DNA of 55,898 bases from Candidatus Parcubacteria bacterium (GCA_003599295.1 QZJK01000009.1:1-55898); one strand, 5' to 3'; numbered from the stretch's first letter, positions 16,016-39,658 are shown. Notes: generated by a model from the sequence alone, not told the origin. Numbers and translations: made by a program.

Positions 16016-17323
16016 ATGAAGATCAACACCGTTTGTGTAATAGGTTTAGGCTATGTGGGGCTCACATTGGCCACAATTTTGGCGAAAAACGGCTTTGAGG
16101 TATTTGGAATAGAAAAAGATAAAAAAAAATTAAGTCTTCTTAAAAAAAGGAAGCCCCACTTCCATGAAGTGGGATTGGCTGAATTATTAAAAAAAACTGA
16201 GGGTAAGCAGCTGCACCTTCTACAGAACATTCCAAGTAATAAAAGAATGGATTGTTTCATTATTGCAGTTTCAACGCCTGTTGACGAGATAACAAAAGAG
16301 CCGAAGATCGATTCTATTATCGCAGCAACGGAGGAGATTGCGCCCTACGTAACCTCGGGTCAGCTGGTAGTATTGAGAAGCACTATTCCAGTGGGAGCAA
16401 CCAGAAAAATCGTGTTGCCGATTTTGAAAAAAAGATCAGAGCACTTTCTCCTAAGTTTTTGTCCGGAGAGGACGGCCGAAGGTAAGGCTTTGGAAGAGTT
16501 AAAAACATTGCCACAAGTAGTGGGTGGTTTAGATCAGGCCAGCACAGACGCTTCTGTGGAACTATTTTCTAAAATCAGCCCCCTAATCGTCGGGGTTAAT
16601 TCATTGGAAGCGGCGGAAATTGTAAAATTAGTGAACAATAGTTATCGGGATTTAGTGTTCGCGTACGCCAACCAAGTAGCCTTTATATGCAAGAGCTTGG
16701 GTCTGAACGCCAAAGAGGTGATTGACGCCGCAAATTTGGGCTATCCAAGGAGCGATGTTAAGTCGCCAGGAGTCGTGGGAGGGTTTTGCTTGGAAAAAGA
16801 TCCTCACATTTTAATGAAATCTGCCAAACACGATGTTTCTTTGATAAAAGCCGCCAAAGAATTGAACGAAAGCGTTGCGGGTCACATTTTGCAAGCAGTA
16901 CAGCGACACCTCAAAGCATGGGGCAAGGATCCAATGACGTCCAGAGTATTTATGTGCGGTTTTGCATTTAAGGGTGAACCGGAAACGGATGATGTGCGTT
17001 CAAGTCAAGCTATAAAGCTATTGAAATTATTGAAAGACAACGGTTTTTCTACTATATATGGTCATGACCCCGTTGTCACAAAAAAACTCCTCAGGGGTTT
17101 GGGAATTCGACCAGTTTCCATCGGAGCCGGTTTTAAAGATGCCGATGTGGCAATATTTATGAATAATCACAAATCATATTCAGGACTCAAAATAGAGCCA
17201 TTGAGTAAAAAGATGAGAAAGGGAGGCCTTGTTTTCGACGGTTGGCACATGTTTTATGATCAACTTTGGGATAGTAATTATGTAAAGTACGAATCGCTTG
17301 GATTTTCGAGTAAAAAAAGATGA
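16016..17323 (+). CDS. nucleotide-sugar 6-dehydrogenase (UDP-ManNAc/UDP-GlcNAc/UDP-Glc dehydrogenase family, full length)
   Basis: VIGLGYVGLTLA Rossmann motif, FCPERTAEG, and the catalytic GGFCLEKD. The third domain is present. The gene is visibly AT-richer than its neighbours. Confidence 0.85.
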   Translation: MKINTVCVIGLGYVGLTLATILAKNGFEVFGIEKDKKKLSLLKKRKPHFHEVGLAELLKKTEGKQLHLLQNIPSNKRMDCFIIAVSTPVDEITKEPKIDSIIAATEEIAPYVTSGQLVVLRSTIPVGATRKIVLPILKKRSEHFLLSFCPERTAEGKALEELKTLPQVVGGLDQASTDASVELFSKISPLIVGVNSLEAAEIVKLVNNSYRDLVFAYANQVAFICKSLGLNAKEVIDAANLGYPRSDVKSPGVVGGFCLEKDPHILMKSAKHDVSLIKAAKELNESVAGHILQAVQRHLKAWGKDPMTSRVFMCGFAFKGEPETDDVRSSQAIKLLKLLKDNGFSTIYGHDPVVTKKLLRGLGIRPVSIGAGFKDADVAIFMNNHKSYSGLKIEPLSKKMRKGGLVFDGWHMFYDQLWDSNYVKYESLGFSSKKR

Positions 17324-19535: not shown

Positions 19536-20720
19536 ATGAAGAAATGCAGCATATGCGGCGAGGACACAGCGGTGTCCTTTTTAGATTTAGGGAAGCAGCC
19601 GCTTGCGAACAAATATCCTCGCGAAGAAGACTTTGCGTCTGAGGATTTTTTTCCTCTAGAAGTCTTTTTCTGCACGACCTGCAGAAACGTGCAGCTTGGC
19701 ACGATCGTCTCGCGCGAGCGGATGTTCGTGGATTACTACTACCTCTCCTCGGTGAATCAGGGGCTGGTACGCCACTTTGAGGGATTGGCGAAAAAGCTCG
19801 CCGGCTCAAAGTTCGTGGTAGACGTCGGCTCGAACGACGGCATCCTCTTGAAACCTTTGAAGGAAATGGGTATTACAGCAGTCGGCATCGAACCGTCCGT
19901 CAATGTCTCGAAAATAGCGAATGATGCAGGGCTTACGACGATCACTGCCTTCTTCAATGCCGAAAGCGCGAAAGAAACGAAGGAAAAGTACGGTGAGCCC
20001 GACGTTATCGTCGCAAGCAGCATCTTCACGCACTTGGAAGATCCACATGATTTCGTTGAGGTCGTGAAGAAACTGCTCGCTAAGAATGGGAAATTCATCA
20101 TTGAGGTTGAATACATCGGGAATTTCATCAAGGACATACAATTCGAGCGTTTTTATCTCGACCGTGTCTTCTATTACTCGCTCTCGTCGCTCAAGTATCT
20201 CGCCGATATGCACGGCATGTACATTTCTGACGTGGAGCACATTGAACCACACGGAGGCTCTTTGCAGGTCACGATGCAGAGGAAGGGGGAAGGCGCGGGG
20301 GAGAGCGAGCGTGTAACGAAGCAGCTCACGGCAGAAGAGAGGGAGCTAACGCAAGCCACGATGCAGGCGTTCAAAAAAGAGGTTGATGCGCAGATTAAGG
20401 CGTTCCGCGAGGCGCTTGAAGCGTTCAAGAAAGAAGGTGTCGCTGTCGCGGGCTACGGAGCGCCCGCGCGCACGACGACCATTTGCAATTACGGGCATAT
20501 CGGCCCCGAATTGATTCCTTTCACGGTAGACGATAGTCCCTTAAAGCAGAATAAATTCACTCCGGGCACGCACATCCCGATCGTTCCGCGTACGTACTTG
20601 GATTCACACAAGCCGGATGTCTTGGTGGTGTTCGCGTATGAATATTTAGATGACATCAAGAAAAAGACCGGCAGTGCATACCGGTACTTCATTCCCATCC
20701 CGCCGCGCGAAGTGGGTTGA
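19536..20720 (+). CDS. NDP-hexose C-methyltransferase (TylC3-like; Zn-ribbon + SAM MTase + C-MT C-terminal domain)
   Basis: N-terminal CSICG..(x)..CTTCRNVQL zinc ribbon, SAM motif VDVGSNDGILL, and a C-terminal GYGAPAR...FTPGTHIPIV domain. Confidence 0.8.
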   Translation: MKKCSICGEDTAVSFLDLGKQPLANKYPREEDFASEDFFPLEVFFCTTCRNVQLGTIVSRERMFVDYYYLSSVNQGLVRHFEGLAKKLAGSKFVVDVGSNDGILLKPLKEMGITAVGIEPSVNVSKIANDAGLTTITAFFNAESAKETKEKYGEPDVIVASSIFTHLEDPHDFVEVVKKLLAKNGKFIIEVEYIGNFIKDIQFERFYLDRVFYYSLSSLKYLADMHGMYISDVEHIEPHGGSLQVTMQRKGEGAGESERVTKQLTAEERELTQATMQAFKKEVDAQIKAFREALEAFKKEGVAVAGYGAPARTTTICNYGHIGPELIPFTVDDSPLKQNKFTPGTHIPIVPRTYLDSHKPDVLVVFAYEYLDDIKKKTGSAYRYFIPIPPREVG

Positions 20721-20765
20721 TTTCTTTTTCATCTTGGAAGTGGTATAGTGCGGCACACAAATCCC

Positions 20766-21824
20766 ATGTCGTCAATAATTACGGAAGACATCGCGAAAAT
20801 CGCCGAAAAACTCGGCGACGATGCGCATCGATTTGCGGGTAAAACGGTTCTCATTTCGGGAGGTGCCGGTTTCCTCGGCCGCTATTTCCTCGCGCTCTTC
20901 CGTCATTTGAACGCATCTGTCCTCAAGGAGAAGAAGGTGCGAGTCATCTCTGTCGACAACTACATCACCGGGTCAGAGGACACAGGAGCACACGATCCGT
21001 ACATTTCGCACGTGCGGGCTGACGTCATCCATCCGCTATCGGTCTCTGAGGACATCCATTACATCATTCATGCCGCCGGTATCGCGTCGCCGGTCTACTA
21101 TATGAAGTATCCGCTCGAGACTATCGAAAGCGCCGTCACCGGTGTAAAAAACCTGCTTGAGCTCGCACGCAAGAATAAAGGTCTCGAAGGTTTCTTGTTT
21201 TTCAGCTCCAGCGAGATATACGGCGATCCGAGTCCTATGGCGGTCCCCACCCCTGAGACTTATCACGGGTATGTCTCGAGTGTCGGCCCGCGAGCGTGCT
21301 ACGACGAGTCAAAACGGCTTGGAGAGACCATCACAACGATCTATCACCAACTCCACAAAGTGCCGGCAGTCATCGTCCGCCCCTTCAATGTGTATGGCCC
21401 TGGCATGGGTCACGTTGATCGACGCGTCATCCCGATGTTCACATATCAGGCATTCAAAAAAAATCCCATTCCCGTTCACGGCGAGGGGACGCAGACGCGT
21501 ACGTTCTGCTACATCAGCGATGCCGTGACAGGCTTTCTTCAAGTGTTGCTGAAGGGTGAACGCGGGCATGCCTATAATATCGGAAATGCCGACAGCGAAA
21601 TCACCATGAAGGACCTCGCGCGTATGTTTACAGAACTCGTCCCGGGTGCGTCGCTTCAGACGATACCCTATCCGGATACGTACCCTGCTGGCGAGCCACA
21701 GCGGCGCTGCCCCGATCTTTCGAAGGCTAAGTCACATGTCGGCTATTCATACAGTGTCGGGCTTCGAGACGGATTAGAGCGTTTTATTGCGTGGGCACGG
21801 ACAGAGCCCGGCTATCGCGCTTGA
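20766..21824 (+). CDS. UDP-glucuronate decarboxylase-like SDR (UXS/ArnA-decarboxylase type)
   Basis: ISGGAGFLGRYF, SSSEIYGDP and YDESKRLGE motifs. The ORF track opens at GTG 20748, and I prefer the ATG at 20766. Confidence 0.7.
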   Translation: MSSIITEDIAKIAEKLGDDAHRFAGKTVLISGGAGFLGRYFLALFRHLNASVLKEKKVRVISVDNYITGSEDTGAHDPYISHVRADVIHPLSVSEDIHYIIHAAGIASPVYYMKYPLETIESAVTGVKNLLELARKNKGLEGFLFFSSSEIYGDPSPMAVPTPETYHGYVSSVGPRACYDESKRLGETITTIYHQLHKVPAVIVRPFNVYGPGMGHVDRRVIPMFTYQAFKKNPIPVHGEGTQTRTFCYISDAVTGFLQVLLKGERGHAYNIGNADSEITMKDLARMFTELVPGASLQTIPYPDTYPAGEPQRRCPDLSKAKSHVGYSYSVGLRDGLERFIAWARTEPGYRA

Positions 21825-21882: not shown

Positions 21883-22818
21883 ATGACTCATCCCAAAAGT
21901 CCCGAAATATCTGTCGTCGTTCCCGTGTACGGTTCTGACGACGTCTTGCGGGAATTATACCGGCGCGTGGTCGCAACGGTGGAAAAGATAACGACTGAGC
22001 TCGAGCTCATCCTCGTCAACGACGCGAGCCCCGACAACGCGTGGCAGGTGATACGGGAATTGGCCTCACAAGACAAGCGCGTCCGCGGGCTCAATCTCTC
22101 ACGCAATTTTGGCCAATATCCGGCGCTGACCGCAGGGCTCCAAGCGTCCCGCGGGGAGTGGGTCGTCGTCATGGATTGCGACCTCCAGGATCAGCCGGAA
22201 GAAATTGCGCGCATGTACGAGAAAGCGCAGGAAGGGTTTTTCGTCGTCGTCGGGTCGCGGCAGAAGCGGCACGACAGCATGTTCCGCTCGTTTTTCTCCC
22301 GCGCCTTCTATGGTGCGCTGAGCTACCTCTCGGGCACCTACCAAGATCCTAGTGTCGCCAATTTCGGCATCTACCACCGAAAAGTCATTGATGCGGTCCT
22401 GTCCCTCGAAGACCACATGCGCTACTTTTCGGTGATGGTGCGGTGGGTTGGGTTTCGCACAGCGAAGGTGCCGGTCCAACATGCAGAGCGGAAGGGTGGC
22501 AAATCAGGATATTCACTCCGAAAGTTATTCAGCCTCGCGATTGACATTATTCTCACATACTCCGAAAAACCCCTCCGGTTCATCGTCAAAGTAGGCGCTG
22601 TGGTCGTTTTGTGTGCGGGACTGTATCTCGCCATCGTCTTGTTTCAAGGATTCGCCTCAGGCTCCCTCGACCTTATGCGCGTGCGCTTCCTCATTGGTTC
22701 CGTATGGCTCATCTTCGGACTCCTCGTGGTGATGCTCGGCATCATAGCCCTCTACCTGGGAAAGACGTTTGAGGAGGTGAAAAAACGGCCAATTTACATC
22801 GTGCAGGAAGAGATATAG
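21883..22818 (+). CDS. GT2 polyprenyl-phosphate sugar synthase (GtrB/ArnC/DPM1-like) with two C-terminal TM helices
   Basis: ISVVVPVYGS, LVNDASPDN and MDCDLQDQPE (DxD) motifs, plus a C-terminal hydrophobic pair. Confidence 0.85.
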   Translation: MTHPKSPEISVVVPVYGSDDVLRELYRRVVATVEKITTELELILVNDASPDNAWQVIRELASQDKRVRGLNLSRNFGQYPALTAGLQASRGEWVVVMDCDLQDQPEEIARMYEKAQEGFFVVVGSRQKRHDSMFRSFFSRAFYGALSYLSGTYQDPSVANFGIYHRKVIDAVLSLEDHMRYFSVMVRWVGFRTAKVPVQHAERKGGKSGYSLRKLFSLAIDIILTYSEKPLRFIVKVGAVVVLCAGLYLAIVLFQGFASGSLDLMRVRFLIGSVWLIFGLLVVMLGIIALYLGKTFEEVKKRPIYIVQEEI

Positions 22819-22830
22819 AATGCGGCGACC

Positions 22831-23928
22831 ATGGCAGGCACAAAGCTGCGGCGTTCCTCAAGGGGGCCGGATGTGACGTTAAACGGCAAGAATATATTGG
22901 TCTGTGGCGGGGCCGGATTCATCGGCTCGAATTTTATCCACTATATCCTAGGAAAGTATCCGAAAGCAAAGATCGTTAATCTCGACAAACTCACCTATTC
23001 GGGCAATCTCGACAATCTCCGCGATCTCGCAAACGAAGCACGCTACACATTTGTGCGCGGCGATATTGCCGATAGAAAGAAAATCACTGCCGTTTTCAAA
23101 AAGTATACGCCACACTACGTTATCAATTTTGCCGCCGAGACACACGTGGATCGCAGTATCCACGTCGGGGCGCTTGAGTTCATAAACACCAATATTGTCG
23201 GCGTGTACAACCTTCTCGAAGCAGTCAAGGCGGCGGGCACCACGCATTCGTTTGTGCAGGTTTCAACTGACGAAGTGTACGGCTCGCTTGATTTGCGATC
23301 CAAGGACAAATTTTCCGAAAGCACGGCGTTTGCGCCCAATGTTCCGTATGCCGCGACGAAAGCGGGCGGCGACATGCTCTGTCGCGCGTATCACAATACG
23401 TGGAAGGTACCGGTCATTGTGACTCATTGCTCTAACAATTACGGTCCGCGCCAATACCCCGAAAAGTTAATCCCATTTTTCGTACTTCGAATGCTCGAAG
23501 GGAAGAAGCTTCCGCTCTATGGCGACGGTAAGCACGTACGCGACTGGATTTATGTTATCGATCATTGTAAGGCGCTCGAGTTGTGTCTTTTGCGCGGGAG
23601 GCCGGGCGCCGTATACAACATCGGCGCGGATAATGAAATGAGTAATCGGAAGATCGCATCCCTGATCCTCAACTATTTTGGGAAGGGTGCGGATGAAATC
23701 GAATTTGTGGGCGACAGGCCGGGACACGATCGTCGCTATGCAATTGATGCATCGCTGATCCGAAAAGAGCTAGGTTGGAAGCCGGAATATCGTTTCGAAG
23801 ATGCATTTCGAGAGACGATCCACTGGTATACTGACAATAAAAAATGGGTCGAGAGAGTGCGTCGGAAAACAGGCGTATTCAATCCCCACATCGATTTATG
23901 GCGAAAACACAGCGTAAAAGGAAAGTAA
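22831..23928 (+). CDS. rfbB: dTDP-glucose 4,6-dehydratase
   Basis: ILVCGGAGFIGSNF, NLDKLTYSGN, STDEVYG and YAATKAGGD motifs. Confidence 0.9.
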   Translation: MAGTKLRRSSRGPDVTLNGKNILVCGGAGFIGSNFIHYILGKYPKAKIVNLDKLTYSGNLDNLRDLANEARYTFVRGDIADRKKITAVFKKYTPHYVINFAAETHVDRSIHVGALEFINTNIVGVYNLLEAVKAAGTTHSFVQVSTDEVYGSLDLRSKDKFSESTAFAPNVPYAATKAGGDMLCRAYHNTWKVPVIVTHCSNNYGPRQYPEKLIPFFVLRMLEGKKLPLYGDGKHVRDWIYVIDHCKALELCLLRGRPGAVYNIGADNEMSNRKIASLILNYFGKGADEIEFVGDRPGHDRRYAIDASLIRKELGWKPEYRFEDAFRETIHWYTDNKKWVERVRRKTGVFNPHIDLWRKHSVKGK

Positions 23929-23954
23929 TCCTGTTGTAGAGTTTCGGTTCGGTT

Positions 23955-24221
23955 ATGTTCTACGTGTATGTGCTTGAGAGCCAAAAGAATGACAGTCTAT
24001 ACATTGGAAGTACCTCTGACTTGCAGAAGCGGCTCAAAGAACATAACCAGAGATTGTCTACTTCGACCAAGCGCTATGCCCCGTGAAAACTGATTTACTA
24101 CGAAGCAAGTCTCAATCACACGGATGCGATCCGTCGAGAAAAATGGCTAAAAAGCACCCACGGGCGTAGAATGCTCAAACTGAGGATTCGCGAATATATA
24201 TGGGAAAGAACAAAAAACTGA
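23955..24221 (+). pseudogene. GIY-YIG nuclease-domain gene interrupted by an in-frame TGA (24084-24086) at the conserved Trp position
   Basis: MFYVYVLESQKNDSLYIGSTSDLQKRLKEHN...RYAP-TGA-KLIYYEASLNHTDAIRREKWLKS. Both halves are in one frame, and family members normally read ..P-W-x-L-x-Y-Y-E at that point. Confidence 0.7.
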
Positions 24222-24244
24222 ATAAACCGAAACTTCACAACAGG

Positions 24245-24958
24245 ATGAAGGGTGTCGTCCTCGCGGGAGGGCTCGGCACGCGCCTGCGCCCTCTCACACT
24301 CATCACCAACAAACACTTACTGCCGGTTTATAACAAGCCGATGATCCTGTATCCCCTGGAGACACTGAAGCGCTCCGGTATCACTGACATCATGGTGGTG
24401 ACCGGTCGTGAGCATGCGGGGCACTTTATGAATTTCCTTGGGTCTGGAAAAGAGTACGGCGTGAAAATTTCTTACGCGCTGCAGGATACAAACAATGGAG
24501 GCATCGCGGACGCACTGCGGTATGCGGAGGATTTCTCAGATAACGGCCCGATTGCGGTCATCCTCGGCGACAATATTTTTGAACAGAATTTCCGGAGGGA
24601 CGTTGCTTCTTTCAAACACGGCGCCAAGGTCTTTTTCAAGGAGATGAAAGATCCGACACGCTTCGGCGTGCCGGTTTTTGATACGTCTCGCAAAAAAATA
24701 GTAACAATTGAGGAAAAACCAAAACAACCAAAATCGAAATTCGCACAAACGGGTTTCTACATGTACGACCAGAATGTCTTTTCTTTCATCAAGACGCTCG
24801 CGCCTTCGGCGCGCGGCGAATTGGAGATTACCGACGTTAACAACATCTATCTCAAAAAGAAGAAACTTTCATATGGCATTATTAAGGGGCTGTGGTCAGA
24901 CGCGGGTACGTTCGAGTCGCTCCACACGGTGAGCAATGAGATCGCGAAGCGCGTATGA
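24245..24958 (+). CDS. rfbA: glucose-1-phosphate thymidylyltransferase (short form sugar nucleotidyltransferase)
   Basis: MKGVVLAGGLGTRLRPLT signature. The ORF opens at 24200, but homologues start at the MKG.. position. Confidence 0.85.
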   Translation: MKGVVLAGGLGTRLRPLTLITNKHLLPVYNKPMILYPLETLKRSGITDIMVVTGREHAGHFMNFLGSGKEYGVKISYALQDTNNGGIADALRYAEDFSDNGPIAVILGDNIFEQNFRRDVASFKHGAKVFFKEMKDPTRFGVPVFDTSRKKIVTIEEKPKQPKSKFAQTGFYMYDQNVFSFIKTLAPSARGELEITDVNNIYLKKKKLSYGIIKGLWSDAGTFESLHTVSNEIAKRV

Positions 24959-25812
24959 CCTCGTATGATTTCTCGAAAGTTCTTACGACTGGAGCGAATG
25001 GGATGATCGGGTCGTATGTCGATTTCGGGATGCGCACTGATAGTGCAACTCTCGATATTCTGGACGCGGAGGGAACGATGCGTCTTGTAGAGGAGTATCG
25101 GCCGAGCGCGGTCATACATCTCGCGGGGGCGACCGATATGGAAAGGTGTGAGCGTGAGCCTGTGTACGCGTACGAACTTAACGTGCGTGGTACCTACAAT
25201 GTTGCACGCGCGGCGCGTGCAGTGGATGCGGTGTTTGTGTATGCGTCAACATCACGGGTGTTCAAGGGAGACAAGAAAGCGGCTTACACCGAAGAGGATA
25301 CACCGGATCCAGTGGGGCGTTATGCAGAGACAAAATATTTCGGAGAACTGGTTACCGCCTCGATCGCGCCGAAATATATCATTGCACGTACAGTGTGGGT
25401 TTTCGGCGGCGGCCCCGAGAGGGACAACAAATTCTACGGTAACGTTTTGCGACAACTCGACAAGCCGGAGATCGTGGCTTTGAATGACGTACGTGGCTCT
25501 CCGACGTATGGTAAGGATTACGTGCAAGCGATCAAGAAATTACTCATGGAAGGAGAGTATGGAATCTTCCACATCGCGAACGAAGGCATAGCGACACGTT
25601 TTGATACCGCTTCCGCGATAGCTACGCAGCTGAAGTCGGACGCAAAAGTGCGTGCCGTTGACCGTAGTTTTTTTCCATTCGGGGCAACACTTCCCACAAA
25701 CGAATCGATCGTATCAAAGCGAGTCACGCTACGGCCCTGGAGGGAGGCGCTTGCGGAATATATTACGGACGAATGGGAGCCCTACCTGCGATCCGCTACA
25801 ATCACCTCATGA
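24955..25812 (+). CDS. dTDP-4-keto-6-deoxyhexose 4-reductase (RmlD/dTDP-4-dehydrorhamnose reductase family)
   Basis: TGANGMIGS, HLAGATD and the YAETKYFGE (YxxxK) motif. ATGA overlap with rfbA. Confidence 0.8.
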   Translation: MTSYDFSKVLTTGANGMIGSYVDFGMRTDSATLDILDAEGTMRLVEEYRPSAVIHLAGATDMERCEREPVYAYELNVRGTYNVARAARAVDAVFVYASTSRVFKGDKKAAYTEEDTPDPVGRYAETKYFGELVTASIAPKYIIARTVWVFGGGPERDNKFYGNVLRQLDKPEIVALNDVRGSPTYGKDYVQAIKKLLMEGEYGIFHIANEGIATRFDTASAIATQLKSDAKVRAVDRSFFPFGATLPTNESIVSKRVTLRPWREALAEYITDEWEPYLRSATITS

Positions 25813-27038
25813 ACTACGTTCATAAGGACACGTGCCGGATCTGCAAAGGCCGCGATCTCACGCGTATCCTCTCTCTCGGCAACCATCCGCCGGTCGATAA
25901 TTTCACGGATGTCGAGCATCTGAAAAACGAAAAACGCTACCCTCTCAATGTGTATTTTTGCGGCACGTGCAATCTCGTCCAACTTCTCGATGTCGTCTCG
26001 GAAGAGGAGCTCTTCCACGGCGAATATGCGTATTTCTCCTCCGCCTCGAAACCGCTCGTCGAGCACTTTCGCTCGTATGCAGATGATCTTGCGCGTGAAC
26101 AGTTGAAAGACGATGATCTCGTCGTCGATATCGGTTCAAACGATGGCATTCTTTTGCAACACCTCGCCCACAGATATCGCGTACTCGGCATCGAGCCGTC
26201 AGCGAACGTGGCGGAGGCCGCCCGAAAGAAAGGGGTCGAGACGCTCGACGGTTTCTTTACCGTTGATATGGCGAAGAAAATGGTTGAAAAATATGGAAAA
26301 GCAAAAGTCGTGGCAGCCAACAACGTCTTCGCGCACATCGATGATCTCGACGAAATTGTTCAGGGTGTGAAAGAACTCCTCTCTGAGGATGGCGTATTTG
26401 TCTCCGAGTCGCACTACCTCCTCGACCTTATCGAGAGACGCGAATTCGACACTGTCTACCATGAGCATCTCTGCTATTACAGCGTCAAGCCGCTTCAACA
26501 TCTTTTCAAACGATTTGGTATGGAAGTATTCGACGTAGGGCGCGTTGACGTGCACGGCGGTTCGATTCGTGTGTATGTGCGTCTTGCTTCCGGTAAGCCT
26601 CTCAAGAATTCCGTGCGCGTGCTATGCGCGCTTGAAGAGAAGGCGGGGCTCTACACCCTTGAGAGGTTCAGTGGTTTTCAGAAGGATGTCGAGGTCATAC
26701 GTGACAAGCTTGTGTCGCTCATACGCGGATTCCGCAAAGAGGGGAAAATAGTTACTGCCTATGGCGCGCCAGCCAAAGGCAATACGCTTTTGAATTTCTG
26801 CGGTTTTACTCCAGATGATCTCAAGTACGTGACCGATACGACACCCCACAAGATCGGTCTCCTCACTCCCGGGAGCCATATCCCTGTTGTATCGCCCGAC
26901 ATTCTCAAGAGTGAGACGCCGGATTATATCTTGCTTCTCGCATGGAATTACCGCAACTTCATTCTCGAAAAAGAAAAAGAGTTGCGTAGTCGCGGTGCCA
27001 AGTTCATTATTCCCATACCCGAGGTTGAAATCGTATGA
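25809..27038 (+). CDS. NDP-hexose 3-C-methyltransferase (TylC3-like), second paralogue
   Basis: CRICKG..(x)..CGTCNLVQL zinc ribbon, VDIGSNDGILL, and a C-terminal AYGAPAKG...LTPGSHIPVV domain. ATGA overlap with the upstream gene. Confidence 0.85.
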   Translation: MNYVHKDTCRICKGRDLTRILSLGNHPPVDNFTDVEHLKNEKRYPLNVYFCGTCNLVQLLDVVSEEELFHGEYAYFSSASKPLVEHFRSYADDLAREQLKDDDLVVDIGSNDGILLQHLAHRYRVLGIEPSANVAEAARKKGVETLDGFFTVDMAKKMVEKYGKAKVVAANNVFAHIDDLDEIVQGVKELLSEDGVFVSESHYLLDLIERREFDTVYHEHLCYYSVKPLQHLFKRFGMEVFDVGRVDVHGGSIRVYVRLASGKPLKNSVRVLCALEEKAGLYTLERFSGFQKDVEVIRDKLVSLIRGFRKEGKIVTAYGAPAKGNTLLNFCGFTPDDLKYVTDTTPHKIGLLTPGSHIPVVSPDILKSETPDYILLLAWNYRNFILEKEKELRSRGAKFIIPIPEVEIV

Positions 27039-27673
27039 ACGAAGACATCGATATCCAGCCCATTCTCACGTGGCTCAAAGAGCGGCAGGCGTCATATCCG
27101 GTCACCGTGGAAGAAGTCGGTATCAATGAGCTACGAGGGTGGCGAGTTGATTCTTCAAGTGGGAACATAACCCATGAATCGGGCAAGTTCTTTTCTATCA
27201 TCGGCGTAAAGGTGACCGGTGCGGCAGATCGCGAGGTGCCATCGTGGAGCCAGCCAATGTTGAAACAGGAAGAAGTCGGCATTTCGGGAGTTTTGGTGCA
27301 GACGAAAGGCGGCATTACGCGCTATCTGTTCTACGCGAAATTCGAGCCGGGAAATATCGATAAAGTGCAGATATCTCCAGCACTCCAAGTTTCCGAAGGA
27401 AATCTCTCACAAGCGCACAAAGGGAAGCGGCCACGGCTCGCGGAATATTTCGATGGGACGAAGGGGAGACTCATCGCTTCCGTGGCGGGCGTCGAGGATG
27501 GCGGCCGGTTCTACCACAAAGTAAATCGCTCGATACTCGTTGAGGTCGACGAGTCTGAAGAGGTGCCGATAACCGAAGATTATATTTGGCTCACGCTTCC
27601 GCAGATAAAAAAGCTTCTTCGTGTCGACAGAGTCGTGAATTCGCTCGCGCGCAACGTATGCGCCCTTTTATGA
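27035..27673 (+). CDS. NDP-hexose 2,3-dehydratase, single-domain (half-length) form
   Basis: ELRGWRVD..GNITHESGKFFSIIGVKV...REVPSWSQPMLKQEEVGISGVLV...YLFYAKFEPGN...ISPALQVSEGN matches the Hexose_dehydratase repeat of the EvaA/TylX3 family. It is only 212 aa. ATGA overlaps on both sides. Confidence 0.8.
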   Translation: MNEDIDIQPILTWLKERQASYPVTVEEVGINELRGWRVDSSSGNITHESGKFFSIIGVKVTGAADREVPSWSQPMLKQEEVGISGVLVQTKGGITRYLFYAKFEPGNIDKVQISPALQVSEGNLSQAHKGKRPRLAEYFDGTKGRLIASVAGVEDGGRFYHKVNRSILVEVDESEEVPITEDYIWLTLPQIKKLLRVDRVVNSLARNVCALL

Positions 27674-28665
27674 GAAAGACACGCGTCGGTATACTCGGGT
27701 GCGCGAATATCGCGGAAAAATACGCGATCGCGGCTTTTAGGTCGCTTCCCCAAGTCGAGCTCGTCGCGATTGGGAGCCGAAAGAAGGCTAAGGCAGAAGA
27801 GTGGGCGGCACGCCACCGCTTGGAGGCAGAAACCTACGATTCGCTCATCGCACGCAAGGATATTGACATCATGTATAGCCCGCTTCCTGTCGGATTACAG
27901 GAAGAATGGACGCTAAAAGCGGCCGCGGCAGGGAAGCATGTCGTCTGCGAGAAATCGATTACGTACAGCCTCCAATCGGCGGAGCGTATGGTGGACGCGT
28001 TCAAAAAAAACGGTCTCGCGCTCTATGAGAATTTTGTCCCGGAATTTCATCCGCAGCACGCACAGGTGCTTGCCCTCATTAACAAGCAAAAAATCGGCAT
28101 CCCGCATGTCTGGAACGGAGCATACGGATTCCCGCCGTTTCCGAAGGGTGACATTCGATTTCGAGCAGAACTAAGGGGCGGTGCCTTGAATGACTGCGGC
28201 TGCTACACGGTATTTATGGCACGAAAGATCATGCAGCAGGAACCAGTTGCCGTCACCTGCGCGCTTTCAAATGATGAAGCCGAAGTCGACGTCAAGGGCT
28301 CGGCGCTCCTTGAATTCGAGAATGGAGAGGCGCTGATGTCGTTCGGCTTCGACCATCTCTACCAGAACACCTATTCCGTCTGGGGCTCGAAGGGGATGGT
28401 ACGGACGAACCGCGCGTTCGCGGTGCCACCCTCGATGGCGCCGACAGTTGAACTCATTACGAACGATGGAAGGGAGGAGAAGTGCGATATGATTGATGTT
28501 CCCGCAGCCAATCAATTCGCATTGAGCTTTGATTTTTTCTGCAAAGCGGTCGCCACAAATGAACGAGGTCAATTCGAAGACATGTACGAACGCATCCTCC
28601 ACCAGGCCAGTGTTTTGGAGGCTATGCGCGTATCAGCGCGAGAGAGGAGACGCGTCGAGCTTTAG
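27670..28665 (+). CDS. Gfo/Idh/MocA-family oxidoreductase, candidate NDP-hexose 3-ketoreductase (TylC1/KijD10-like)
   Basis: RVGILGCANIAEKYA Rossmann N-terminus and an EK(S) active-site region VVCEKS. It lies immediately downstream of the 2,3-dehydratase and is translationally coupled to it. Confidence 0.7.
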   Translation: MRKTRVGILGCANIAEKYAIAAFRSLPQVELVAIGSRKKAKAEEWAARHRLEAETYDSLIARKDIDIMYSPLPVGLQEEWTLKAAAAGKHVVCEKSITYSLQSAERMVDAFKKNGLALYENFVPEFHPQHAQVLALINKQKIGIPHVWNGAYGFPPFPKGDIRFRAELRGGALNDCGCYTVFMARKIMQQEPVAVTCALSNDEAEVDVKGSALLEFENGEALMSFGFDHLYQNTYSVWGSKGMVRTNRAFAVPPSMAPTVELITNDGREEKCDMIDVPAANQFALSFDFFCKAVATNERGQFEDMYERILHQASVLEAMRVSARERRRVEL

Positions 28666-28964
28666 TCTCCAGACTTTCCTTCAAACCATGCGAGCACTTT
28701 TTCAAGCTCGTTCTCGACATCGACGCCGCGCTCCTCGGCGAAAATCAGGACGTCCGCAATAAGCGCGCCGATCCGGTGATTGGGATCCTGGTGCGCGTGG
28801 TCGTCGCTTTGCCGCGCTCCGCGCTCGACTTCGAGCGCCGCTTTCACGTCATCAAGCTGCTTTTGAATGGAAGTCACGCGCTCGGACTCGCCCCACCCGC
28901 TGTTTGGAAATTTGCGACCAGCCGCCGTTTTGAATGCCTTTTGCCACTCACTGACGCTTTTCAT
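28662..28964 (-). CDS. MazG-like nucleotide pyrophosphohydrolase (small all-alpha NTP-PPase)
   Basis: 100 aa. The motif ..IGALIADVLIFAEERGVDVENELEKVL.. resembles the MazG-family helix pair. The stop overlaps the convergent upstream gene by 4 nt. Confidence 0.5.
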   Translation of the reverse strand: MKSVSEWQKAFKTAAGRKFPNSGWGESERVTSIQKQLDDVKAALEVERGARQSDDHAHQDPNHRIGALIADVLIFAEERGVDVENELEKVLAWFEGKSGD

Positions 28965-29044
28965 AGCTGCAATTCAATCCAACCATACCACATCCAAGAT
29001 ATCCTTTATAGCGGACACAATGTTCCAGGTCCTTTGATTTTTGC

Positions 29045-29746
29045 TCAAGCTCTGAACTCTGCATCAGTTCTTACAAACACTACGTCGCATTGGTATAACT
29101 TGTTATTTCGATTCGCTCCTGCCAACATGTCGAAGACGGAGAAGCCGTGTTCACGCATGGCATATACCACGTCACCGAATTCGGCACCGCTATCGTACTT
29201 TCTTGCGATTGAAGTTTCGATAATGACAGCTTCGGCATGTCGTAACGTTTGCGCGGCTCCTTTGATAACTTCGAGCTCTGCGCCCTCAACGTCTATCTTT
29301 ATGATGTAAGGTTTCTCGAGATCTTTCTCAAGCACTAACCTGTCGAGTGTTTTAACAGGTACCTTCACTATTCCTGTCTGTCTATGAGGGGCGAGCAAGG
29401 TAAACGCAGAGGAGTATTCGGAATTCGCATGAGTGTTAAGCCTGATACTTCCTTCTCCCGCTCCGCAAAAGGCCATTTCGAAATCAGCATGCATCGTGCG
29501 TGCCAAAGATTCTACGACGTTCCGATTCGCGGGATCAGCCTCAACAAGTAAGTACCGATATTTATCGGAAGGAAATGCTCTGTAGAGTTCGGGGGTTCCG
29601 TTTGCGACGCCGATGTCTATGATGCTTCGAACATTCAAGTATTTCGCGAGTCTCTCAAGGCCGCCCTCGAGAGAACGCATCGGTGTGTCAATCCGCTGGA
29701 TTTTCAAATCAAAAATGGCCAGGAGCTTTTTTGTCAATTTTTTCAT
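29045..29746 (-). CDS. FkbM-family SAM-dependent methyltransferase
   Basis: IIDIGVANG and IIKIDVEGAELEVIKGA motifs. Visibly AT-richer than the flanks. Confidence 0.8.
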   Translation of the reverse strand: MKKLTKKLLAIFDLKIQRIDTPMRSLEGGLERLAKYLNVRSIIDIGVANGTPELYRAFPSDKYRYLLVEADPANRNVVESLARTMHADFEMAFCGAGEGSIRLNTHANSEYSSAFTLLAPHRQTGIVKVPVKTLDRLVLEKDLEKPYIIKIDVEGAELEVIKGAAQTLRHAEAVIIETSIARKYDSGAEFGDVVYAMREHGFSVFDMLAGANRNNKLYQCDVVFVRTDAEFRA

Positions 29747-29753
29747 ATTAAAA

Positions 29754-29837
29754 TCAAGTAGATATATGAATCATGTCACAATTCTCACGATTCGCAGCTG
29801 TTTTGAATGCCTTTTGCCATTCGCGCAGGCTTTTCAT
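29754..29837 (-). pseudogene. duplicated 5-prime remnant of the MazG-like gene (27 codons then stop)
   Basis: It translates to MKSLREWQKAFKTAANR..., against MKSVSEWQKAFKTAAGR... at 28964 downward. DNA 29794-29837 aligns with 28921-28964, including a perfect 19-mer TTTTGAATGCCTTTTGCCA. Confidence 0.65.
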
Positions 29838-29910
29838 CGCCACATAGTATGCACGCGCGCGCGGTAGTTGTCATCATCAGGATGATGTGATTAATTGTGC
29901 AGACAGTACG

Positions 29911-30960
29911 ATGAAAATACTTCTCCTGGTGAGCAATGCGGATACGAAGGCGGGAAGCGGACGGAACGTTGCGACCATCTCCGCCGTTCTGCGTGATGCC
30001 GGGCATGAGGTGACGGTTCTTGCCTACACAAAAGGATTCTGGCGATTTGTCAGGGAGGTGCGCAAACGCGCAAAGACGAATGATATCGTTCAGGCGATTG
30101 ATATCAATCCGGTCGGACTGCCTGGATATCTCGCAACGCGCTTCACCAAAGCAAAATTCATCATCATCGCGCAAGCGGCATACGCAATTGCGCCGCTCTA
30201 CAGTCGCAAGGCGGCGCTCTTGTCACGCATCGTGTATCGTGGCGCGGATGCGGTTGTTGCGGGGAGTTCGTTCGTCGCGCAGGAAATACAAAAGAAAGTG
30301 CCGGGTTTGGAAGTATCGGTAATCGATCCCGGCATCGATATGTCAAAATTTTCGGATGTGGCAAACACGGGCAAGCACACGGCACGGACAGACCCCTACA
30401 TCATCGGAGTGGGTGCGGTGAAAGCGCGAAAGGGGTATGACGTCTCATTGCGCGCATTTGCGCTCCTGAAGGCCGATTTTCCGCGCTTGCGGTACGTCAT
30501 CGTCGGGTCGCAAACCGATGAGCCGCTATATTTCTCCATGCTCACGGAGCTTGCGCGCGAACTCGGCGTCGGGCGTGACGTTGACTTCCTCGCCAACGTT
30601 CCAGACGCTGGATTGAACGAGCTGTATGACCGCGCATCCGTCTTCGTCCTTACTTCGGTAAATCTCGGCTTTCATTTCGAGGGCTTCGGAATGGTCTTTT
30701 TGGAGGCGGCCGCGCACGGCCTCCCGAGCGTTGGCACGCTCGGCAACGGCATCGCGGATGCGGTGGAGGATGGAACGACGGGCATCCTCGTCCCGCAACA
30801 TGATCCCGAAGCGACAGCGCGGGCCATCAGGACTATCCTTACGGACACGGCGAAAGCAGAACGCATGAGTATCCGCGCACGAGCGTTTGCCCGCGAACAC
30901 GATCTCCCGCACCTTACGCGCTGTTATGAGGGCCTCTATCGTGATATCTTCACCTCCTGA
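29911..30960 (+). CDS. glycosyltransferase, GT4 family
   Basis: MKILLLVSNADTKAGSGRN N-terminus and a FEGFGMVFLEAAAHGLPSV (E-x7-E) motif. Confidence 0.85.
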   Translation: MKILLLVSNADTKAGSGRNVATISAVLRDAGHEVTVLAYTKGFWRFVREVRKRAKTNDIVQAIDINPVGLPGYLATRFTKAKFIIIAQAAYAIAPLYSRKAALLSRIVYRGADAVVAGSSFVAQEIQKKVPGLEVSVIDPGIDMSKFSDVANTGKHTARTDPYIIGVGAVKARKGYDVSLRAFALLKADFPRLRYVIVGSQTDEPLYFSMLTELARELGVGRDVDFLANVPDAGLNELYDRASVFVLTSVNLGFHFEGFGMVFLEAAAHGLPSVGTLGNGIADAVEDGTTGILVPQHDPEATARAIRTILTDTAKAERMSIRARAFAREHDLPHLTRCYEGLYRDIFTS

Positions 30961-30963
30961 AAT

Positions 30964-31611
30964 ATGTACATCTATCAAATAGAACGAACACTCATCCACG
31001 CGCAAGTTAAACGGTTCGCGAAGCATATCTCGGGCGATGTTTTGGACGTAGGCGGGGGCGAGCGCAACCGGTACAAAGATCTCTTTATCTACAAGACGTT
31101 CACCTGTCTGGATATTTCTGCGGGGCCAGAGGTCGACATCGTAGCGTCGGCCGACGCGATTCCCTTGCCGGATGGGAGTAAAGACGCCGTCGTCTCTACA
31201 CAGATGCTCGAGCACGTCAAATACCCGGAGCGGTGTGTACAGGAAATGTATCGCGTGCTGAAAAAAGGCGGGCACGCGCTCGTCACGGCTCCCCAATGGA
31301 ACGAGCTCCATTCCGAGCCGCACGACTACTGGCGGTACACGAAGTACGGATTTATCGAGCTGTTCGAACGCAACGGATTCCGCGTCGTCGAGTACGAGCA
31401 GCGTGGTGGATTTTTCTCCAATGCCGCGCAGATGACCTTGCGGTATTTTCTGGACCGGCTCCATCTCCACAACCGTCCGGTACTCGGCAGGGTTTTCAGC
31501 CGCATATTTCAGGCTATGGGCGCGTTCGCCATTTTTCTTGACCGGCATGATACGAGCGAGGCGAACCGGAAGCACGCGATCGGCTGGTGCTTCTTGTTCC
31601 GGAAAGAATAA
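30964..31611 (+). CDS. class I SAM-dependent methyltransferase
   Basis: [10 protein letters not shown] motif I and LKKGGHALV post-II region (Methyltransf_11-like). Confidence 0.75.
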
Positions 31612-31645
31612 AACCCCGTTGCCCGCATCCCCGCAAGGGGATAGA

Positions 31646-32659
31646 ATGAGCTTCACTATGAAGAAAGCCTTCATTACGGGTATTACCGGGCAGGATGGCT
31701 CATATCTCGCCGACCTGCTACTCGAGAAGGGGTATGAGGTGCACGGACTCGTGCGCCGCACGAGCCGCTATATCATCGGCTCTCACGAGGGTTCACTTGC
31801 CACGGAACAGGCGAAAACGGACAATCTCAAGTTGTACTACGGTGACCTGAGCGATTTCAGCTCCATCTCGCGCATCATCTCGCAGGTCAAGCCGGACGAG
31901 GTCTACAATCTCGCGGCGATGAGCGACGTGCGAGTGAGCTTCGATATTCCCGAATACACGGGTGACATCTCGGGGCTCGGTGCCGCCCGCGTGATAGAAG
32001 CAGTGCGCCAAGGAGGCATCCCGGCGAAGATCTATCAGGCCTCGACTTCCGAGTTATACGGAAAGGTCCTCGAAACCCCGCAGAGCGAAACGACTCCCTT
32101 CAATCCGCAATCCCCCTATGCGGTGAGCAAATTGTATGCATACTGGATGGGCAAAAACTATCGCGAGAGTTATGGGATGTTCGTAGTCAATGGCATCCTT
32201 TTCAATCACGAGAGCCCGCGCCGTGGACCGAATTTCGTGACGCGCAAGATCACGCGCGGCGTCGCGGACATTGCGCTTGGTCGCCCGCGCAAGATCTACC
32301 TCGGCAATCTCGACGCGAAACGCGATTGGGGCTATGCGCCGGAGTACGTCGATGCCATGTGGCGCATGCTCCAGGCAGACAAGCCGGACGACTATGTGCT
32401 CGCGACCGGCGAGACGCACACGATCCGCGAGTTCCTCGAAGAAGCGTTCTCGCTCATCGGCAAACACTGGGAAGACCATGTAGAAATAAAGAAGGAGCTC
32501 TTCAGACCGGCGGAGGTCGACCTCCTGATCGGTGACTCGTCGAAGGCAAAGCGCGATCTCGGATGGGAAGCGAAAGTGAAATTCAAGGAATTGGTGCGTA
32601 TCCTCTTCGAAGCGGACCTCGAAATGGCGAAAAACACGGCATTGAATAAAGACGCCTAA
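31646..32659 (+). CDS. gmd: GDP-mannose 4,6-dehydratase
   Basis: [52 protein letters not shown] and NHESPRRG motifs. The ORF-track N-terminal extension from 31538 overlaps the previous gene. Confidence 0.9.
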
Positions 32660-32671
32660 AGGTTATCTTGT

Positions 32672-33919
32672 ATGAGGATAGCAGTCCTTCAGGACGACTT
32701 TCCTCCCTACCATGAGGGCGGGTCAGGTGTCGTCGCTCATCAGCTCTCGCATGAGTATGTCCGCAGGGGACACGGAGTGCTCGTTATTTCGTCAGTACAT
32801 TCTCCGGAACATGCCGGGATCTCGAATCTCGACGGAATGCAAATCGCGCGTTTGTATTCGGATTACCACGTACGCTGGCGTGCCTATCGCAGTCTCTATA
32901 ATCCGAGCGTCGTCGGGAAGATCGATGCACTTTTAAAGGGCTTTCAACCGGATGTGGTACATGTCCACAATGTCCATACCCACCTTTCCTACTACTCGCT
33001 CGTTCTCGCCCGAAGATATACGCGCAATGTCTACATGACTGCACATGATGTGATGTCGTTCCATTTTGACAAGCTGCTATCAGCGGATGAAGCCTCGGTG
33101 AATTTTTCCGAGGAGAACACGTACGTGGAATCTCACCTGCGCCAGATGCGAGTCCAGGGATTGCGATATAACCCTTTCCGTACAACACTCATCCGATACC
33201 TTCTCAATAGTAATGTCCGTCGCGTCATCGCTGTGTCCGAGGCGCTTAAGCGCGGAATGGTGAAAAACGGTATCAATAACGTCGATGTCGTGCATAACGG
33301 CATAGAGACCAGTGATTGGAAGGAGCCGTCTGGGACGGCGGCGTTCAAGCAATCGCGCGGTATTGGGGATGCAGCCATTCTTTTCGGAGGTCGTCTTTCA
33401 GCGGCAAAAGGCGCGTTTGCAATACTCGATGTGCTCCAGGCGATACGTGAGAAAGTACCGCACGCGCAGGTAGTGGTGATCGGTAAGAAGGATGCCTATG
33501 CCGAACCAATGATCGCGTACGCGCGAAAGCGGGGGATTGAAGAAGGATTGGTGTTTACGGGATGGATAACCGGGGACGACATCCGAGCTGCCTACTATGC
33601 GGTGACCGTCGTTGCGGTGCCGTCGCTCTATCTCGATCCATTTCCCACGATCAATCTCGAGGCATTTGCGTGTGGGAAACCTGTCGTTGCGACGTGTTTC
33701 GGCGGGTCCCGGGAGATCGTGGAGGACGGCGTCTCCGGCTTCATCGTGAATCCGCTCGATACGAGGATTATGGCGGAAAGAATCTCAATGCTCCTGCAGG
33801 ACAAAGACATGAACACAGCGTTCGGACAGGCGGGATACCGGCGCGTCACGAAGGATTTCTCACTCACAGTCCAAGCAGGAAAATACTTGCAAATATTCAC
33901 CGACAGTTCTGCGGCATAA
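32672..33919 (+). CDS. glycosyltransferase, GT4 family
   Basis: MRIAVLQDDFPPYHEGGSGVV N-terminus and a VPSLYLDPFPTINLEAFACGKPVVAT motif. Confidence 0.85.
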   Translation: MRIAVLQDDFPPYHEGGSGVVAHQLSHEYVRRGHGVLVISSVHSPEHAGISNLDGMQIARLYSDYHVRWRAYRSLYNPSVVGKIDALLKGFQPDVVHVHNVHTHLSYYSLVLARRYTRNVYMTAHDVMSFHFDKLLSADEASVNFSEENTYVESHLRQMRVQGLRYNPFRTTLIRYLLNSNVRRVIAVSEALKRGMVKNGINNVDVVHNGIETSDWKEPSGTAAFKQSRGIGDAAILFGGRLSAAKGAFAILDVLQAIREKVPHAQVVVIGKKDAYAEPMIAYARKRGIEEGLVFTGWITGDDIRAAYYAVTVVAVPSLYLDPFPTINLEAFACGKPVVATCFGGSREIVEDGVSGFIVNPLDTRIMAERISMLLQDKDMNTAFGQAGYRRVTKDFSLTVQAGKYLQIFTDSSAA

Positions 33920-33940
33920 CGCGCACGCACGTGTAGGGAA

Positions 33941-34396
33941 TTACTCCAAGACCGGCGGCTTGTAGTTCGGATCACCGTGATCACCCGTACCCATGCCTAG
34001 ATTTTCGTGCACGATCGGTGGATCGCAATCGTCCCATTTTTTCGTGAGGAACGTCACGAGGTTGCAGTCCGTGATGGCATAGAATACATGAGATACGCCC
34101 TGTGGAATAAAGAGGCAGTCGCCTTTACCGACGTATAAAAACTCATCTTTGCCGTCATCGGTTTTCGTCACCATGACCCCGTTCCCGTCCGTAATGAGAT
34201 AGTACTCATCGTATTCGGGGTGGTAGTGGTTACCGCGTATCTTGCCCTTATTCAAGAATTGAAAATTAAATTCGAGAATAGGCTTGTCCGGATAAAACGT
34301 GAATATACCACCGCGCCCGTCGCGAACGGTATCTAGATTTGATTGGGGCGCTATTTTTTTAATTTTCATGCGTATGTTCCGCGCACGCCATGTCAT
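33941..34396 (-). CDS. cupin-fold sugar-nucleotide epimerase/isomerase-like protein
   Basis: Cupin core RGNHYHPEYDEYYLITDGNG....GDCLFIPQGVSHVF. The start at 34396 forms an ATGA overlap with the flippase stop, and an alternative ATG lies at 34369. The specific activity is not determinable from sequence. Confidence 0.55.
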   Translation of the reverse strand: MTWRARNIRMKIKKIAPQSNLDTVRDGRGGIFTFYPDKPILEFNFQFLNKGKIRGNHYHPEYDEYYLITDGNGVMVTKTDDGKDEFLYVGKGDCLFIPQGVSHVFYAITDCNLVTFLTKKWDDCDPPIVHENLGMGTGDHGDPNYKPPVLE

Positions 34397-35664: not shown

Positions 35665-36110
35665 GGTGTCATCCTATACCCCATGAGATAAAAACTCCAT
35701 TCATCACTCAACGCTCACTTGTTGCAAATATTAAACTCTGCCCGTACATATCTGCGTTTTCTATCTCACGGGTATAGGCACATCACGAACGGAACAGGCT
35801 GTCTAATGGAAATAATCGGCGGACTGTCAAGTGTTTTCAGAGTAACACACATTGTATTCGCTGCCACGAATCGCAAGACATCCAAAACGACAGATCAAAA
35901 AAATCTTGGGCAGACGCTAAGAAGAAAGGCCCCTTGAATGGACCGACGAGGTAGTACAGATAAATCATGGCATCGCCATCGTCCGAGGAACTCGTGCTCG
36001 CAACACGAGTTATACCCAGGTTATTCACAAATTCCCCTGAAATCACGGTTTCCTGGAGAAAATGGAGAGGAGTACTATGCACGTTATTAATCACCTCACA
36101 AAATTTACGT

Positions 36111-39629: not shown

Positions 39630-39658
39630 TGCATGCGGATTCCTGGGTCTGAGGCAGG

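Follow-up and report, generated by a model that had tools for sequence, protein, structure and literature searches.

Gene content and organization of the cassette

The DNA fragment analyzed here (GCA_003599295.1, QZJK01000009.1:1-55898; 55,898 nucleotides, hereafter the window) comes from a Candidatus Parcubacteria bacterium and carries a seven-gene cassette (positions 21883-28665) that probably constitutes a self-contained module for a branched deoxysugar. Its open reading frames (ORFs) are the following, with protein lengths in amino acids (aa):

21883-22818, plus strand: GtrB/ArnC-type family 2 glycosyltransferase (GT2), 311 aa, opening gene of the conserved cassette
22831-23928, plus strand: RmlB
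24200-24958, plus strand: RmlA-like protein, likely true start at 24246
24955-25812, plus strand: RmlD-family 4-ketoreductase
25809-27038, plus strand: TylC3/MtmC-type 3-C-methyltransferase
27035-27673, plus strand: single-domain NDP-hexose 2,3-dehydratase, 212 aa
27670-28665, plus strand: KijD10/TylC1-type 3-ketoreductase (Gfo/Idh/MocA family)

Four start/stop overlaps (ATGA at 24955, 25809, 27035, and 27670) link the last five genes. The ORFs from RmlB onwards, their families, and these overlaps had been listed in a preliminary description of the window, and all of them are confirmed by the sequence read-out and by Pfam and NCBIfam profiles. The conserved unit begins one gene further 5′ than the operon described there, at the GT2 gene, which is separated from RmlB by 12 bp and adjoins it in 10 related loci. 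These loci belong to a set of 15 from bacteria of the Candidate Phyla Radiation (CPR), collected in a scan of species-representative genomes. The order GT2, RmlB, RmlA, 4-ketoreductase, C-methyltransferase, dehydratase, and 3-ketoreductase is kept in 10 of the 15, with 58-89% protein identity, a recurrence far beyond chance; in the remaining five, either a contig end cuts the cassette or the cassette is rearranged (L012). The overlap at the methyltransferase/dehydratase junction is seen again in several of these loci. Homologue sources and related loci identify the host as a reduced-genome CPR bacterium of the Kaiserbacteria type, in agreement with the reduced genome initially suspected. A scan for promoters and terminators between 19 and 30 kb gave counts not above the shuffled expectation.

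Enzymes flanking the dehydratase

RmlB scores above the equivalog cut-off for dTDP-glucose 4,6-dehydratases (TIGR01181, 454 bits versus 365). The RmlA-like protein matches PF00483 (NTP_transferase, E 3.6e-57) and has as closest model TIGR01207 (rmlA), which it covers from positions 1 to 236 of 286 with 238 bits, under the cut-off. Its translation probably starts at the ATG at 24246 (MKGVVLAGG...), after which comes the GGxGTRL motif; counted from there, the enzyme is a short form of ~237 aa that stops ~50 residues short of the C-terminal end of the rmlA model. A CDP-linked pathway was considered and rejected, as the models for CDP-glucose dehydratase and glucose-1-phosphate cytidylyltransferase score far below the dTDP models. 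The 4-ketoreductase belongs to the RmlD family (RmlD_sub_bind, E 6.5e-56; TIGR01214, 179.5 bits, under the equivalog cut-off of 224), has RmlD structures as its top matches in the PDB, and possesses an intact GxxGxxG motif (TGANGMIG) together with Y123xxxK127.

The C-methyltransferase matches PF08421 (Methyltransf_13), PF13489 (S-adenosylmethionine (SAM) methyltransferase), and PF08484 (Methyltransf_14), all over their cut-offs, and displays the three-part architecture of TylC3, MtmC, and TcaB9, with a Zn-binding N-terminal domain, a SAM domain, and a Methyltransf_14 domain. It aligns end-to-end with MtmC (4rv9, deposited as D-mycarose 3-C-methyltransferase; E 8e-100, 338 bits), whereas the amino-sugar enzymes KijD1 and TcaB9 score ~1e-84 and ~287 bits. 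This greater proximity to MtmC suggests C-3 methylation of a 4-keto-2,6-dideoxyhexose. Residues Cys9/12/51/54, which presumably bind Zn as in TcaB9, and Y217-H-E-H220 (YHEH), which we take to be the active-site Y-x-E-H motif of that enzyme, are present. The nearest match to the Gfo/Idh/MocA protein is KijD10, a 3-ketoreductase (3rbv; E 2e-56, 195 bits, with the next PDB match at 90 bits), and the window protein has the EK motif (E94-K95) and the tyrosine in GGALNDCGCY. The comparison with characterized enzymes proposed in the preliminary description thus gave EvaA, MtmC, KijD10, and RmlD structures as best matches, and neither the dehydratase nor the C-methyltransferase is nearer to families with other chemistry.

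A second member of the TylC3 family (394 aa, 35% identical to the first) is encoded within 19536-21824, followed by a short-chain dehydrogenase/reductase (SDR) gene, and has YLDR where the first has the active-site YHEH. A bona fide GDP-mannose 4,6-dehydratase (GMD) gene lies 10 kb from it, at 31538-32659, and in the related locus L010 a GMD gene is found beside a C-methyltransferase-like gene. These genes may belong to a second, GDP-linked pathway for a branched 6-deoxyhexose, to which virenose- or evalose-type chemistry would be better suited. The term ‘virenose-type’ had initially been applied to the cassette itself, which it fits poorly because virenose retains its 2-OH.

A half-size 2,3-dehydratase

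The preliminary description recognized the family of the NDP-hexose 2,3-dehydratase and missed its architecture. The protein consists of one PF03559 (Hexose_dehydrat) domain, aligned to profile positions 3-203 of 203 (E 3.6e-60, 203 bits versus a gathering threshold of 25); at 212 aa it has half the size of EvaA or TylX3, and instead of the two tandem domains (~470 aa) of the EvaA paradigm it possesses only one. Its similarity to EvaA is strong (E 6e-63), with 134 bits for the N-domain and 80 bits for the C-domain. In EvaA, pocket A, with the essential residues E139 and E190, is active, and pocket B is a remnant of gene duplication (review, PMC8987622). E104 and E154 of the window protein align with these two glutamates and are invariant in the single-domain clade. 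A domain alignment (12 single-domain proteins, 70 N-domains, and 70 C-domains) shows that proteins of the single-domain type also share a series of residues specific to N-domains (Q78, E80, G85, K102, N107, Q112, N123, H128, G130, F139, and K162). Across 120 homologue clusters, 94 of the 212 positions of the dehydratase are at least 98% identical, and purifying selection on it appears to be very strong.

An AlphaFold2 model of the monomer (pLDDT 78.8) is nearest to EvaA (E 2e-14, TMq 0.67) and then to homodimeric Nudix enzymes such as NUDT5. Two segments, 67-77 and 123-128, are poorly ordered in the model and are among the most conserved of the protein, which would fit loops that need a dimer partner or bound substrate to become ordered. 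Most likely, two copies of the protein work together as a homodimer, in imitation of the two-domain EvaA subunit and with an active pocket in each. The same features could be read differently: the half-size protein might have no activity, serve in regulation, or hydrolyze sugar nucleotides as a Nudix-type enzyme, and the product might be a 6-deoxy-3-C-methylhexose that keeps its 2-OH, such as evalose or virenose. The second domain, found in every characterized 2,3-dehydratase, is indeed absent here, the fold belongs to the Nudix superfamily, and the monomer model has the two disordered segments just mentioned. We nevertheless consider this very improbable, given the invariance of the catalytic glutamates and of the N-domain signature under such strong selection, the translational coupling of the gene on both sides, and the constant company of a KijD10-type 3-ketoreductase, whose sole known role is the reduction of the 3-keto product of 2,3-dehydration.

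In a neighbor-joining tree of the sequences aligned above (100 bootstraps), the 12 single-domain proteins form a clade with 99% support, placed outside the N-domain diversity in 41% of the replicates and inside it in 59%, a split that does not tell apart a pre-duplication relic and the secondary loss of the remnant domain. The 212-aa form comprises more than 120 homologue clusters (76-95% identity, all of 210-237 aa), with named sources in Kaiserbacteria, Paceibacterota, Parcubacteria, and Patescibacteria, plus one Azotimanducaceae label. Among the best 150 of the 50%-identity representatives retrieved in an exhaustive search, 140 have two domains and only three are single-domain relatives. 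When one of these three, protein P0133 (248 aa, 59% identical), was used as query, a second subfamily emerged, also large and single-domain, whose members have 245-260 aa, with 1287 matches at E ≤ 1e-20, the best 120 of which are all single-domain and, where named, from Patescibacteria. Single-domain 2,3-dehydratases appear, from these searches, to be common in CPR bacteria; a literature search found no paper describing them.

Predicted sugar product

Homology suggests a route of six steps. The short RmlA would make dTDP-glucose, which RmlB would turn into the 4-keto-6-deoxy intermediate; the 212-aa dehydratase, probably as a homodimer, would then take off the 2-OH, the KijD10-like enzyme would reduce the ketone at C-3, the MtmC/TylC3-like enzyme would put a SAM-derived methyl group on C-3, and the RmlD-family reductase would reduce C-4. 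The similarity to EvaA, MtmC, and KijD10 supports the initial prediction that this enzyme set makes a dTDP-2,6-dideoxy-3-C-methylhexose. The accompanying idea that the set falls short of an epimerase has to be abandoned. A reconstituted cassette for TDP-D-mycarose consists of desIII, desIV, oleV, oleW, cmmC, and mtmTIII, which encode RmlA, RmlB, 2,3-dehydratase, 3-ketoreductase, C-methyltransferase, and 4-ketoreductase, and includes no epimerase (PMC10269268). The window operon holds all six activities and so equals the full reconstituted set. As no epimerase accompanies the cassette, its product would most simply be D-mycarose or one of its C-3/C-4 epimers, and a D-series sugar is the simplest reading of the gene content.

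An L-series product would be possible through the reductase, which is of the RmlD family, through an epimerase gene located elsewhere, or through one enzyme with both epimerase and reductase activity. A more specific alternative is that the pathway leads to dTDP-L-mycarose by the tylosin-type route, with a cupin acting as the 5-epimerase and Leloir glycosyltransferases building the sugar into a Wzx/Wzy repeat unit. The genes on which it relies are:

33941-34396, minus strand: soluble cupin, 151 aa, with a HxH...E metal-cupin motif
34393-35664, minus strand: Wzx flippase
44653-46872: Wzy_C-domain protein

The window contains many family 4 glycosyltransferase (GT4) genes besides these, the characterized members of the family of the 4-ketoreductase (RmlD) reduce L-configured sugars, and the cupin weakly resembles RmlC (E 2e-3) and the Cap5F cupin domain (E 2e-4). 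We consider this alternative unlikely. The cupin, proposed earlier as the candidate epimerase, has to be discarded for that step: it carries a metal-binding motif, its best matches are oxalate-decarboxylase-like bicupins (Sll1358 and oxalate decarboxylases, E 1e-9 to 1e-7), it overlaps the stop of Wzx by 4 nt on the strand opposite to the cassette, within an ~11 kb block absent from five related loci, and no homologue of it was found in any of the 15 related loci. It may belong with the GDP-sugar genes of this inserted block. Profile scans of the window proteins detected no dTDP_sugar_isom protein, so that the TylK/RmlC-type epimerase of the dTDP-L-mycarose pathway was not found in the window. 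A search of the 302 kb of window plus loci gave no RmlC-like sequence (none under E 0.25), a soft test with a Salmonella RmlC as query.

Proposed delivery to the cell surface

The opening GT2 aligns over its full length with GtrB sll0501 (5ekp; E 3e-49, residues 7-308) and with ArnC (9hwj; E 1.5e-48) and has two C-terminal transmembrane (TM) segments (229-260 and 264-297), as in the GtrB/ArnC family. Three membrane proteins are encoded further 3′:

39659-41050, minus strand: PMT_2-family GT-C membrane glycosyltransferase (PF13231; ~11 hydrophobic segments), candidate extracytoplasmic transferase
40942-41571, minus strand: GtrA-family small membrane protein (PF04138, E 1.3e-24), probably with an internal true start; candidate flippase for a lipid-phosphate-linked sugar
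41390-43063, plus strand: polytopic membrane protein, 557 aa (~10 hydrophobic segments; no Pfam match)

These three genes lie directly 3′ of the 3-ketoreductase in five related loci (L005, L006, L008, L010, and L015), where the 557-aa protein is conserved beside GtrA with 55-67% identity, and again in L011 with one gene between. A PDB sequence search with the PMT_2 protein returned nothing at E 0.1. The 557-aa protein may be an undescribed second GT-C-like transferase.

GtrB, GtrA, and a GT-C enzyme make up a three-component system in which a sugar is loaded onto undecaprenyl phosphate, flipped, and transferred outside the membrane (PMC11127046). Judged from homology and from the linkage conserved among relatives, the cassette GT2 would move the sugar onto polyprenyl phosphate and the GtrA-type protein would flip the lipid-linked sugar; the PMT_2 GT-C enzyme, perhaps together with the 557-aa protein, would then attach it outside the membrane to an envelope glycan or protein. 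The acceptor could be the polysaccharide of the surrounding ~40 kb glycan locus or a surface protein. PMT_2 enzymes include protein O-mannosyltransferases. Incorporation into a Wzx/Wzy repeat unit, as assumed both in the preliminary description and in the L-mycarose alternative, is probably not the fate of the sugar, since the transferase that travels with the cassette is of the GtrB/ArnC type, not a Leloir polymer glycosyltransferase, and is linked to GtrA and GT-C genes in relatives. Operon linkage predicts a dTDP-sugar donor for the GT2; for a GtrB-type enzyme, a dTDP-dideoxysugar donor would be new.

The best explanation overall is probably a dTDP-2,6-dideoxy-3-C-methylhexose cassette combined with lipid-phosphate delivery and transfer outside the membrane. 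Several points weigh against it. GtrB-type enzymes have been described with UDP-sugar donors (PMC11127046). The PMT_2 and GtrA genes are located 11 kb from the cassette in the window, which also holds the Wzx, Wzy-like, and many GT4 genes, so that a Leloir route in the cytoplasm retains some likelihood. L-configured sugars are the normal substrates of RmlD-family reductases, an epimerase gene could lie elsewhere or the reductase could be bifunctional, and the stereochemistry of the 3-ketoreductase and the 4-ketoreductase is not legible from sequence.

The wider distribution of the transferase can be followed in four loci of the second single-domain subfamily (L019-L022), whose divergent dehydratases are 55-59% identical to the window type. 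They share the order RmlA, GtrB-like GT2, and single-domain dehydratase, in which the end of the GT2 gene overlaps the beginning of the dehydratase gene; their GT2 proteins are 31-33% identical to that of the window, with two TM segments in the three examined (L019, L020, and L022). A Gfo/Idh/MocA gene occurs in each of the four, split into two short calls in L021, and tblastn recovers an orthologue of the window 3-ketoreductase (44-51% identity) in L019, L020, and L022; it is adjacent in L022, and in the others one or two genes intervene. RmlB is close by, as are PMT_2 genes in L019 and L020, and neither a TylC3-type methyltransferase nor an RmlD-type reductase was found in any of them. This gene content suggests that a 2,6-dideoxyhexose pathway plus a GtrB-type transferase is the core that travels across Patescibacteria; the C-methyl branch would be a speciality of the Kaiserbacteria-type cassette. 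L020 also encodes (2447-4717) a 756-aa protein in which a GT2 domain is fused to a PMT_2 GT-C domain.

The same chemistry could also serve a different destination, with the lipid-linked sugar becoming part of a glycolipid of the membrane or of a small glycoconjugate that is secreted. Lipids, for example lipid A, are among the possible substrates of PMT_2/ArnT-type enzymes, and in L022 genes for FkbH, an acyl carrier protein, a phosphopantetheinyl transferase, and MaoC are found close by. To our knowledge, CPR bacteria have no lipid A; in addition, the cassette is embedded in a ~40 kb locus dominated by polysaccharide genes, and the window contains no lipid-tailoring genes. We regard this destination as quite improbable and retain transfer to an envelope glycan or protein as the favored outcome.

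Surrounding glycan locus and putative mobile inserts

The ~40 kb locus around the cassette is rich in GT4 genes and includes UDP-glucose dehydrogenase (UGDH), AsnB, Wzx, and Wzy_C-TPR genes. Profile scans revealed no polyketide genes in the window, as had been noted before. The ~11 kb block between the cassette and PMT_2/GtrA (28700-39650) encodes an FkbM methyltransferase, a GT4, a methyltransferase, GMD, another GT4, the cupin, Wzx, a Rha78-Ig protein, and an SDR; it is absent from this position in L005, L006, L008, L010, and L015. The right edge of the block carries, at 39306-39587, a shortened copy with an internal deletion (51% identity) of the cytidylyltransferase-like N-terminal half of the gene at 43816-44622, which suggests insertion or recombination. 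Elsewhere in the window, a 657-aa ORF (8794-10767) joins a GT4 to a partial UDP-glucose/GDP-mannose dehydrogenase, matched from profile position 71, and is either a fusion or a decayed duplicate; a complete UGDH is encoded at 16016-17323. Just 5′ of the glycan locus, the window encodes a homologue of VirD4/TrwB-like coupling proteins and a secreted-type lamin-tail/PKD protein (2399-4225 and 4056-5699).

One further ORF interrupts the cassette itself, between RmlB and RmlA:

23955-24221, plus strand: GIY-YIG nuclease, with a single in-frame TGA at 24084-24086

Read with tryptophan at the stop, which we take to be the residue of its relatives at this position, it matches PF01541 with E 2.4e-18. 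It corresponds to the GIY-YIG remnant reported initially in this spacer, and appears to be inactivated by the TGA and to take no part in the sugar pathway. Related cassettes contain GIY-YIG ORFs of ~88 aa at other sites: between RmlA and the 4-ketoreductase in L007 (1870-2103), between the C-methyltransferase and the dehydratase in L013 (7728-7925), and between the dehydratase and the 3-ketoreductase in L014 (8677-8874). In protein P0177, a GIY-YIG domain sits in frame inside the dehydratase ORF (PF03559-PF01541-PF03559). These ORFs look like mobile selfish elements, the P0177 case being possibly intron- or intein-like.

Some taxonomic labels of the related loci deserve comment. L015 (JBLHGD010000001.1) is labeled Candidatus Azotimanducaceae (Gammaproteobacteria), yet it has the cassette and the PMT_2/GtrA/557-aa synteny of the Kaiserbacteria loci, and the contig is probably misbinned. 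An automated pipeline attached the label ‘Saccharibacteria’ to several others (L002, L006-L008, and L012).

A predicted dideoxysugar pathway in ultra-small bacteria

2,6-Dideoxy and C-branched sugars are seen as typical of the antibiotics of actinomycetes. In the literature searches, this enzyme set was encountered only in natural-product clusters of actinomycetes, as the preliminary description had anticipated in ascribing such sugars mainly to antibiotics, and no report of it for CPR bacteria or for surface glycans was found. Each enzyme family and the logic of the three-component systems are already known. What appears to be new is the conservation, in many CPR genomes, of an antibiotic-type branched 2,6-dideoxysugar pathway linked to a lipid-phosphate carrier system, together with the single-domain architecture of the dehydratase and the implied dTDP donor of a GtrB-type enzyme. 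Sequence features, synteny, and conservation were established directly, and they are the basis of the functional statements made here.

The pathway would be under strong purifying selection in more than 100 lineages of bacteria that are ultra-small, depend on hosts, and produce no polyketides, which suggests a structural or recognition role for the sugar at the CPR cell surface, a surface that is almost uncharacterized and probably mediates attachment to the host. Much more tentatively, we propose that many Patescibacteria carry 2,6-dideoxyhexoses on their envelope or on surface proteins, among them a D-mycarose-like 3-C-methyl sugar in the Kaiserbacteria-type lineage. They would use an unduplicated single-domain dehydratase with the EvaA fold, a homodimer whose two active sites are equivalent, and a dTDP-using GtrB-type synthase whose lipid-phosphate-linked product feeds GT-C transfer outside the cell. 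A GtrB-type enzyme that accepts a dTDP-dideoxysugar would widen the known donor range of three-component systems. The single-domain dehydratase would offer a minimal, possibly ancestor-like model for the origin of the two-domain EvaA enzymes, and could be a compact part for glyco-engineering.

Comparison with known systems

The dTDP-L-mycarose pathway of tylosin and erythromycin (TylX3, TylC1, TylC3, TylK, and TylC2) shares with the cassette the 2,3-dehydratase, 3-ketoreductase, C-3 methyltransferase, and 4-ketoreductase steps, but its TylK/RmlC-type epimerase was not found in the cassette, in the window, or, by the soft test, in the related loci. The TDP-D-mycarose pathway of the aureolic acid producers of mithramycin and chromomycin (MtmD/E, MtmC/CmmC, and MtmTIII) has the same six activities and likewise no epimerase, and its MtmC is the best solved relative of the window C-methyltransferase. 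The window differs from it by a CPR host without polyketide genes, a one-domain dehydratase, and an RmlD-family 4-ketoreductase, and its sugar is predicted to go to a GtrB-type lipid-phosphate transferase, not to a GT1 natural-product glycosyltransferase.

The dehydratase belongs to the same Pfam family as EvaA of Amycolatopsis orientalis (PDB 4j7g/4j7h), keeps its catalytic glutamates, and has it as best structural match; whereas EvaA is a protein of 471 aa with two tandem Nudix-like domains, the window enzyme has one domain in 212 aa and is nearer to the active N-domain. Finally, the predicted delivery route resembles the Gtr three-component systems (GtrA/GtrB/Gtr* of Shigella and Salmonella phages, ArnC/ArnT, CsbB/GtcA/YfhO, and GacI/GacL) in combining a GT2 with TM helices, a GtrA-family protein, and a GT-C enzyme, which are genetically linked in related genomes for the window-type proteins. 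It differs from them in the predicted donor, a dTDP-linked branched 2,6-dideoxyhexose in place of the UDP-sugars known for GtrB-type enzymes, and in the joining of the full nucleotide-sugar pathway to the GT2 in one operon.

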